From a virus (Duplodnaviria; Caudoviricetes): a stretch of DNA of 43,353 bases. The notes beneath the pieces were generated by a model that saw only the letters and a list, made by a program, of their open reading frames with translations, was not told the DNA's origin and did not search any database. Positions 16,840-17,559 of this stretch are shown here, one piece after another. The first letter of the stretch is position 1; each line of letters opens with the position of its first letter. Position numbers and translations under genes: made by a program. The DNA lies in the IMG/VR virus record IMGVR_UViG_3300042109_000041, positions 1 through 43,353 of that record; one strand, given 5' to 3'.

Positions 16840-16930
16840 AGGCCTCTCTGAGGGCCTACAAGGTGCCTCTACGCAGTCTTGAGGGTGAAGGTACCAGAGA
16901 GGTCTTAAAGGGCTCTCAGATGTGGCCTTG
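16840..16930. repeat. Phased ~11-bp degenerate repeat element, copy 1
   Basis: ggcctctctga|gggcctacaag|gtgcctctacg|cagtcttgagg followed by gtgaaggtaccagagaggtcttaaagggctctcaga; similar to 18556-18660. Confidence 0.5.
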
Positions 16931-17156
16931 AGCGCGTGTGTATATGCGTGTAGGCGCATAACCGCATAACTCTTTAAGACCTCACAAAACCACACCGTCA
17001 CACCATCTCAACACCGTTATATCGCTATGCAATGGCCTCCCGATAGCCATTCGGCGGCCTCTAAAGGCCCCACAGGGGGGTCAGGCGGCGGGGCAGAGCG
17101 TTAACTAGGGCTCGAAAATTCGAAGCAAAACCCTTTAAGACCCTTAAAAAAAAAAA

Positions 17157-17227
17157 TAAGTGGACTGGGATTTGCACCCAGACTGAGTTCCAGTTGTCCT
17201 GGCTGCCTCTACTTGGGCTACCCACTT
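17157..17227 (-). ncRNA. tRNA-like element with a non-canonical anticodon arm
   Basis: AAGTGGG TA GCCC AAGTAG AGGC A GCCAGGACAACTGGAAC TCAGT CTGGG TGCAAAT CCCAG TCCACTT A: 7-bp acceptor stem, U8A9, D arm, perfect 5-bp T stem with 7-nt loop; followed by T11. Confidence 0.65.
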
Positions 17228-17325
17228 AGGGGAAACGTTATCGGACGCTTCCTGAACCGAGCTCAAAAGAACCAAAGAAACTATACACCCCCTGAGACCC
17301 CTCTAGAAGCCTCTCTAACACCCCT

Positions 17326-17559
17326 CTACTTGTTTCTAGACCTATTGGTACTCGGATGTTGAATACGAAGGTTAGAGCGGCTGTTATTACGAGGGTTACC
17401 GTCTTTGTGATCTACGTCTTTACCTTTCAAGCTGTAACCAGCGTTAGCCAATTTACGACGAGCTTTATTACGGCTAGATCGATTAGCTCTTTGTTCTGGT
17501 TTTGAGTGGTAATTGTCGTATTCCTTACGGTAGTTTCTTTGTGCCACTGCTAGATCCAA
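17326..17559 (-). CDS. Small HNH endonuclease-like protein
   Basis: RNY.KEY...R..RNKARR...GKDVDHKDGNPRNN..SNLR......NRS. Confidence 0.85.
   Translation of the reverse strand: MDLAVAQRNYRKEYDNYHSKPEQRANRSSRNKARRKLANAGYSLKGKDVDHKDGNPRNNSRSNLRIQHPSTNRSRNK

Follow-up and report, generated by a model that had tools for sequence, protein, structure and literature searches.

The question raised by this locus is whether a tRNA-shaped sequence with a replaced anticodon arm is a tRNA gene in decay or an RNA kept for some other purpose, and what that purpose might be. The original prediction for the window (the whole 43,353-nt stretch of phage DNA analysed) described a minus-strand cloverleaf of 71 nt with a 7-bp acceptor stem, a T stem, the T loop UGCAAAU and no encoded CCA, flanked by an 8-bp hairpin and a U11 tract. 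Sequence and predicted fold agree with that description in every one of these parts (Table 1), and the element is real, conserved and tRNA-shaped, and cannot decode.

Structure of the element

The fold predicted by ViennaRNA is exactly the described cloverleaf, with a D stem of GCC paired to GGC, a G-U pair at the end of the acceptor stem, a D-to-T spacing of 23 nt and a single nucleotide between the element and the hairpin module upstream (module A). The 7-bp acceptor, the D stem, the 5-bp T stem and the 7-nt loop are those of tRNAs in general (RF00005). The anticodon arm departs from them: CAA falls at positions 34–36 by count in the window copy, but position 33 is A rather than U, and an arm of 5 bp with a loop of 7 nt is absent. 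The elbow, predicted to be intact, is so in part. With no G18 in the D loop and a G at position 55, the window copy has no G18-U55 pair, whereas the G19-C56, U54-A58, U8-A14 and A15-U48 positions are all kept. Because G55 is also present in 7 of 34 ordinary phage tRNA-Leu, it is better regarded as a lineage trait than as damage.

Table 1. Features on the minus strand around the element (positions in the window)
Feature	Position	Strand	Description
Mimic, likely tRNA-Leu-derived, 71 nt	17157..17227	-	Acceptor, D, rebuilt arm, variable loop, T arm
Acceptor stem	17227-17221/17164-17158	-	7 bp, the last a G-U
T stem	17181-17177/17169-17165	-	T loop UGCAAAU
A73	17157	-	No encoded CCA
Rebuilt anticodon arm	17187..17203	-	G27-C43 pair, 2-nt bulge, 4-bp stem, pentaloop
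CCAG-GACAA-CUGG	17202-17190	-	GACAA pentaloop at 17198-17194
Module A	17229..17259	-	8-bp hairpin 17252-17231 (one G-U) and 2-3 bp beyond a 4-nt bulge
Leader hairpin, 5 bp	17260..17273	-	At putative transcript start; predicted in the window and L392
Likely -10 element TATAGT	17280..17285	-	6 nt before GG start; putative cassette promoter
HNH-like gene, 77 aa	17326..17559	-	PHROG HNH matches (E 4e-07); last gene before the cassette
U11 tract	17146..17156	-	Ancestral to the locus; likely transcription end

The folding energy is modest for 72 nt (z -1.43, with 18 of 200 shuffles equally stable) and lower for the 110 nt that include the upstream hairpin (z -2.68, 2 of 200). Energy alone says little here, and it is because of the conservation described below that a chance origin of the fold is disfavoured. 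ARAGORN at its default threshold reported no tRNA in the whole window, and Rfam gave no tRNA match for the element, with only chance matches at E values up to 10. The Rfam cut-off was reached by none of the related elements in 20 loci, and the score of the window copy for RF01684 (mascRNA/menRNA) was 13.2 bits against a cut-off of 42.5. Relaxed ARAGORN was rejected as a detector, its 70% threshold giving 213 calls in the window that amounted to noise only. A model built for the family scores the window copy at 86 bits, which follows by construction as the copy is one of its training sequences.

A family with a fixed five-base loop

Pattern scans of viral and metagenome contigs recovered 63 distinct members of the family in 140 fetched loci, many of which were repeat fetches of one contig. 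The members fall into 27 clusters at 90% identity and are a median 67% identical to the window copy; being related, they give counts that overstate independence, and a nominal P value is not meaningful. The metagenome pattern made no demand for pairing and so provides a control, in which 58 of 60 loci nevertheless close GACAA with at least 3 pairs and carry a T stem; the D-arm motif lies within the counted spacing in 51 of 60.

Covariation was assessed in 22 distinct members of the 4-bp type. Ten members with 3-bp or shifted stems, whose arm is misaligned by MAFFT, were left out of this count; with these ten included, 91% of cells are paired. Across the 22, pairing in the four helices together reaches 98.4% of cells. 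Double changes occur at 13 of 20 pairs, among them all 7 of the acceptor, and the 12-bp acceptor/T helix is intact across the alignment. Every cell of the rebuilt arm is paired (100%), 3 of its 5 pairs having double changes, whereas the canonical 5-bp anticodon register is paired in only 22.7%, which bears out the proposal that the normal arm cannot form and that CCAG-GACAA-CUGG takes its place. Acceptor, T and rebuilt stems covary, and sliding the partners out of register abolishes the signal. Such covariation, in a family of 63 distinct members, argues for selection rather than decay, as originally proposed. A sequencing error is excluded because an independent contig (L072/L288) has the element with a compensatory change from C-G to U-A in the rebuilt stem relative to the window.

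Among the 63 members, 15 different stem pairings surround the loop and 25 distinct acceptor sequences can be counted; this pattern of selection points to something that recognises the loop and the shape as a whole, whatever the sequence of the acceptor. When the arm was left unconstrained, a scan gave 81 matches, of which 80 were fetched, 78 parsed and 50 distinct. These 50 comprised 10 canonical and 2 near-canonical tRNA-Leu, 5 sequences that are not cloverleaves and 33 non-canonical cloverleaves. Loops of the 33 were GACAA in 26, GATAA in 2 and longer related sequences in 5, with no plain GNRA or UUCG tetraloop among them. The loop is expected to fold in a GNRA-like manner, which would leave no anticodon loop to cut. 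For the family, the idea that GACAA holds an anticodon for Val (GAC) or Cys (ACA) was discarded, as covariation closes the loop at five bases.

Several further tRNA-like sequences were seen during these scans. L116:1497-1592 and L162:1497-1592 have Leu-type bodies with a GACAA or GATAA hairpin and a long variable arm. Leu-type 5' halves occur in nine loci of large phages (L111, L114, L141, L142, L150, L152, L154, L166 and L167), where a shared long insertion stands instead of the anticodon loop; we take this insertion to be possibly an intron or a GOLLD-like element. The cultured Arthrobacter phage Boersma (MT310874, genes 61 and 60; L372:1154-1315) has two odd tRNA-like genes, the first with a Leu-type body and a poorly pairing anticodon arm, annotated variously as Gly, Leu or OTHER, and the second with a long-arm body and a 7-nt loop ending in GACAA, annotated as Val.

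Likely descent from tRNA-Leu and loss of identity

ARAGORN called 402 distinct tRNAs in the examined loci, 69 of them with a D arm of the mimic type. In this census, the loci of which were fetched by a D-arm pattern with the anticodon left free, 57 of the 60 non-mimic tRNAs with such a D arm were tRNA-Leu with a short variable loop. Nine family members were called under wrong names, seven of them as tRNA-Cys(ACA). The mimic is likely to descend from the short-variable-loop (type I) tRNA-Leu of phages, an ancestry that, like the likely promoter and the modular arrays described below, had no place in the original prediction. With the type I tRNA-Leu of phages and Streptomyces (PMC6614811) it shares the D arm, a 5-nt variable loop, the 23-nt spacing and the U8-A14 and A15-U48 positions; it differs from them in lacking the 5-bp/7-nt arm, U33 and an encoded CCA, and in having mostly lost A73 and G18.

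Parsed members (62) were compared with 34 canonical type I tRNA-Leu. A73 is present in 9 of 62 members, which belong to only 6 of the 27 clusters and include the window copy, versus 33 of 34 canonical tRNA-Leu. CCA is encoded in register in none of the 62 and in 18 of the 34; member L318 has ACCA after an 8-bp stem. The D-loop GG is found in 19 of 62 members, and the core positions A58 (62 of 62) and U48 (59 of 62) are retained. For the Aquifex LeuRS, A73 and G18-U55 are reported to be critical and the anticodon arm dispensable for leucylation (PMC2377443), and a Streptomyces LeuRS is reported to ignore A73 (PMC6614811). Because A73 is mostly lost and an in-register CCA is absent, most members are probably uncharged, although the window copy could be an exception.

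The cassette and its phage setting

The window is a 43-kb T7-like phage. Its terminase shares 84.5% identity with the terminase of Prochlorococcus phage P-RSP2 and only near 50% with the next records, and this likeness suggests a cyanobacterial host. On the minus strand the terminase, a thymidylate synthase and the HNH-like gene are followed by the cassette, the U11 tract and a conserved motif. In a survey of 81 loci (the best 80 of 214 terminase relatives together with P-RSP2), the HNH-like gene was present in 58, nearly all without the mimic, and is context rather than a partner. Fifty-one relatives reach the downstream motif: mimic and hairpin occur together in one (L072), the hairpin occurs alone in two (L079 and L080), and the other 48 lack both. 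A plain hairpin followed by U6 or more stands at the same place in 29 of these 48. The cassette is an optional insertion in this T7-like phage group, carried with the mimic by 1 of 51 relatives.

Both alleles can be seen in contigs from public sequencing runs. One low-depth contig, from a run that is probably DNA, covers 17175-17517, and two others diverge from the window at 17287 into the hairpin allele. Each of the four runs contained under a fifth of the words, and contigs give neither ends nor strand; the single run recorded as RNA had no contig over the element, which is evidence neither way, as contigs cannot show absence.

The geometry of the -10 element is repeated in L072 and L079, where the leader hairpin has a different sequence with its pairing retained. 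Scans for consensus promoters and for terminators returned 0 sites each. The cassette transcript, if it starts at 17273 and runs to the U tract, would be 128 nt long. Neither the window nor L072 has a terminator hairpin, the acceptor stem abutting the U tract directly, and it is likely from this arrangement that acceptor stem and U11 also end the transcript here. The suggestion of a tRNA-derived terminator fits this locus, but only this one, as most members have no U tract.

The upstream hairpin is no part of the mimic but a separate conserved small-RNA module, because it also occurs without the mimic. Module A was found with a relaxed pattern at 31 viral loci, usually without a mimic, and is present in the cultured Synechococcus phage S-CBS2 between terL and a sigma-factor gene; it has no Rfam family. 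L072 has a compensatory change in this hairpin relative to the window. Covariation of module A is thin, with one compensatory change at each of 2 pairs in 17 distinct rows of an alignment in which the search pattern had itself fixed most columns.

Downstream of the U tract, motifs at 17090-17135 and 16930-16950 (minus strand) are kept in nearly all relatives amid short purine/pyrimidine repeats; they would fit a genome terminus or packaging site of T7-like phages.

Carriers of the family comprise P-RSP2-like and S-CBP2-like podoviruses, integrase-bearing phages and phages without cyanophage likeness, and L230 and L231 have a T7-type primase-helicase with no close cyanophage match. The mimic thus moves among phage lineages and also among positions, lying at the genome end of a P-RSP2-like phage and between scaffold and capsid genes in an S-CBP2-like phage. 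Some members stand alone between two genes (L344, L348) and others lie within ordinary tRNA arrays (L230, L318, L336). No protein neighbour is common to the family, the largest cluster touching 18 of 64 members within flanks of 2.5-3 kb, and the representative of the most frequent neighbour cluster belongs to a PHROG of unknown function. BLAST searches with four members found none in cultured phages. The family model found none in L094, S-CREM1 or P-RSP2, its best S-CREM1 match being an ordinary tRNA-Leu. In 185,579 bacterial and archaeal genomes, a pattern that covers only members with a G-C closing pair gave 4 chance matches, all without a cloverleaf, and no host-encoded counterpart next to a toxin.

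Arrays of small elements

Besides module A and the mimic, seven further recurrent elements were delimited by eye. All of these are found in changing orders (e.g. B-A-abiF-mimic or mimic-H-A-E) with spacers that are often 1-7 nt, and with 1-6 nt between the mimic and the module upstream. Where module B opens an array, it is preceded at 6 nt by a TAnnnT box in 18 of 25 distinct starts. The sequences immediately preceding the 63 members were abiF-like elements (13), B (7), D (6), A (3, one with abiF), a -10-like TAnnnT box alone (9) or other sequence (26).

The abiF element scores 52.8 bits with Rfam in L188 and 33.9 bits, just below the cut-off, in L228. The search of the window found none, but its control also matched nowhere. 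The abiF-motif RNA is reported to neutralise its HEPN toxin AbiF in trans (10.1101/2025.04.15.648962); the Abi_2 family was absent among 79 of 126 flanking ORFs, within 2.5-3 kb in 18 of 20 chosen loci. The cultured cyanomyovirus S-CREM1 is reported to carry abiF in its tRNA region (PMC9964418); there abiF stands 4 nt before a real tRNA-Gly (L226:3006-3118), and in S-SZBM1, also a cultured cyanomyovirus, abiF stands over an ordinary tRNA-Ala. The placement of abiF directly before a tRNA suggests that RNase P cleavage could form the 3' end of abiF.

Other arrangements were noted. In the interval between scaffold and major capsid genes of L228, L248 and L266, an abiF-like element and a mimic are followed by a further small hairpin with GACAA or GATAA in its loop. 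Module E (L083, L084, L096, L107 and L358), about 3-6 nt after A or the mimic, is a second tRNA-like element without an Rfam match. Its acceptor and T arm are intact, but a long branched region replaces the anticodon arm. Module F (L103, L104 and L106), 17-19 nt after A, is tRNA-like with a 6-bp stem and 5-nt loop at the anticodon position. Modules B, C, D, G and H (L188, L195, L222, L257, L330, L183 and others) match nothing in Rfam at cut-off, and B usually opens an array 6 nt behind a -10-like box.

Relation to known tRNA-like RNAs

Non-decoding tRNA-like RNAs are already known, among them the C4/CI antisense RNAs of P1, P7 and P4, YrlA and the species 1 and 2 RNAs of T4; this family is new. 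C4 RNAs have target sites in the same locus, whereas no complementary targets of the mimic were found in its phage loci. YrlA is permuted and neighbours Ro60, whereas the mimic has an ordinary topology and no Rfam match, and no Ro60/TROVE family was present among 79 flanking proteins. In length the mimic is half the T4 species 1 and 2 RNAs. The t-elements of plant mitochondria (PMC1920247) and mascRNA/menRNA (RF01684; see also PMC11693755) are likewise reported as tRNA shapes without a usable anticodon that abut other RNAs; the mimic differs in its fixed GACAA arm, its stand-alone copies and its phage origin. The abiF RNA antitoxin (RF03085) is an array neighbour and, like the mimic, an orphan next to tRNA genes, but is unrelated in sequence and fold. 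The P22 boxB, as reported (PMC12550061), has the identical GACAA pentaloop, which the mimic mounts on a tRNA body. Inactive allo-tRNAs reported near toxin-antitoxin genes (PMC5389517) resemble it in forming irregular tRNA-like arrays with a suggested toxin-antitoxin link; their branches are described as 8/4 or 9/3, against 7/5 with a pentaloop in the mimic.

The nearest description found is DNAVirus_215, a candidate RNA from freshwater phage (87 nt, 15 sequences) that overlaps ARAGORN tRNA-Cys calls (PMC10690425); the accessible text gives Delftia as predicted host and no function or family description, and the comparison with the mimic is by description only. The mimic family may be among the unnamed candidates of that report, with DNAVirus_215 a possible match. 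Rfam 15 lacks the family, the accessible text of a review of tRNA-like RNAs (PMC7609411) makes no mention of phage, and the literature searched, in a comparison outside which the PMC10690425 alignments lay, held no description of the family, nor did the phrase 'tRNA mimic' appear in the anti-defence papers listed.

Possible roles

Of the roles first suggested, a decoy fits best and is put forward tentatively: the mimic may act in trans as an uncharged decoy against a host defence directed at tRNA, role and target both being guesses. The optional cassette would be transcribed from the -10 box, and transcription would end at U11 with the acceptor stem replacing the lost hairpin. Host RNase P and 3' trimming would then cut the mimic free, the RNase P cut also releasing module A, and the free mimic would bind the defence protein; we infer the promoter, the transcript, the maturation by RNase P and the lack of charging. 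A decoy is favoured because shape is kept while identity is lost, the loop is fixed and occurrence is optional and modular. Accessory counter-defence genes tend to be optional and mobile. That the RNA is a product rather than only a spacer is argued by the 9 of 63 members that start behind TAnnnT and by others that stand alone or in tRNA arrays. Known phage counter-measures of this kind supply working tRNAs in place of those that were cut and do not act as decoys. Against a decoy also count the A73 kept by the window copy, the absence of an abiF match in the window and the fact that, of about nine modules, abiF is the only one whose role is known; in its favour are the company of orphan abiF and the precedent of phage tRNAs reported to counter tRNA-cutting defences (PMC13096335). 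Two specific versions have been weakened, an anticodon-nuclease target by the GNRA-like cap, which is not an anticodon loop, and a LeuRS target by the loss of A73 in most members.

Somewhat more doubtful is a processing module of the t-element or mascRNA kind, in which RNase P and RNase Z would free the RNAs of the array (A, abiF, B and C) and the mimic would be non-decoding so as to leave translation undisturbed. The 1-6 nt spacers and the intact 12-bp acceptor/T helix agree with this, and a real tRNA fills the same slot behind abiF in S-CREM1 (tRNA-Gly) and S-SZBM1 (tRNA-Ala). However, GACAA is conserved although RNase P and Z need no fixed anticodon-arm loop, stand-alone and tRNA-array members have nothing to release, and modules A and B often lack a tRNA-like neighbour, so that a processing signal, as first suggested, explains the spacing but neither these members nor the loop. 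A t-element precedent for processing has been reported (PMC1920247), and processing and decoy are not mutually exclusive. Another reading is a docking scaffold, on which an arginine-rich phage peptide would bind GACAA in the manner of boxB, for antitermination or packaging, with the tRNA body lending stability. The P22 boxB pentaloop is reported to be GNRA-like with its C flipped out to the N peptide (PMC12550061), and the loop is conserved over 15 stem variants; docking is nonetheless unlikely, as the 2.5-3 kb flanks share no neighbour protein and the element is optional among near-identical phages.

The Leu-type D arm, the A73 of the window copy, the dispensable anticodon arm (PMC2377443) and the LeuRS indifferent to A73 (PMC6614811) would together suit a leucylated non-ribosomal RNA, whether aminoacyl donor or LeuRS sponge. 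This is more improbable still, because a synthetase substrate would keep A73, and A73 and G18-U55, critical for the Aquifex enzyme as reported, are mostly gone (9 of the 62 members have A73, and 19 have the D-loop GG). There is very little likelihood of a C4-like antisense regulator whose loop or variable region, both conserved, pairs with phage mRNA. RNase P-processed antisense RNAs of tRNA shape do exist in phages P1 and P4. The complement of the loop, however, shows no excess within 600 nt of the 64 members examined: 48 copies were counted where 59 would be expected (rank 665 of 1024). The coding strand of the window contains the 7-mer complement a single time, the best complementary match elsewhere covers 11 nt without including the loop, and there is no match to an Rfam C4 family. 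Least probable is a decayed tRNA that acts only as a terminator. In 29 of 48 relatives its place before the U tract is taken by a terminator hairpin, but as a sole role this is largely refuted by the family-wide covariation, the lack of a U tract in most members and the empty terminator scan.

Implications

The usual explanation of phage tRNAs is that they serve as spare decoders. The tRNA gene described here exists in many phage lineages in a remodelled form that cannot decode and probably cannot be charged, yet selection maintains its shape and five-base loop. It accounts for some of the 'tRNA-Cys(ACA)' calls in phage genomes. It also belongs to a group of about nine small conserved elements that cyanophage arrays carry unannotated, of which only abiF is in Rfam. 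It is conceivable, if doubtful, that cyanophages carry mix-and-match arrays of counter-defence RNAs in which abiF and modules A-H each neutralise a different RNA-regulated toxin and the mimic serves as a tRNA decoy that cannot be cut. If so, such arrays would be the RNA equivalent of anti-defence islands, a form of counter-defence not met in the literature searched. The Boersma genes offer a relative of this theme that is tractable in the laboratory. By setting apart a function of phage tRNA-like RNAs that lies outside translation, the mimic provides a clean test of the decoy idea.
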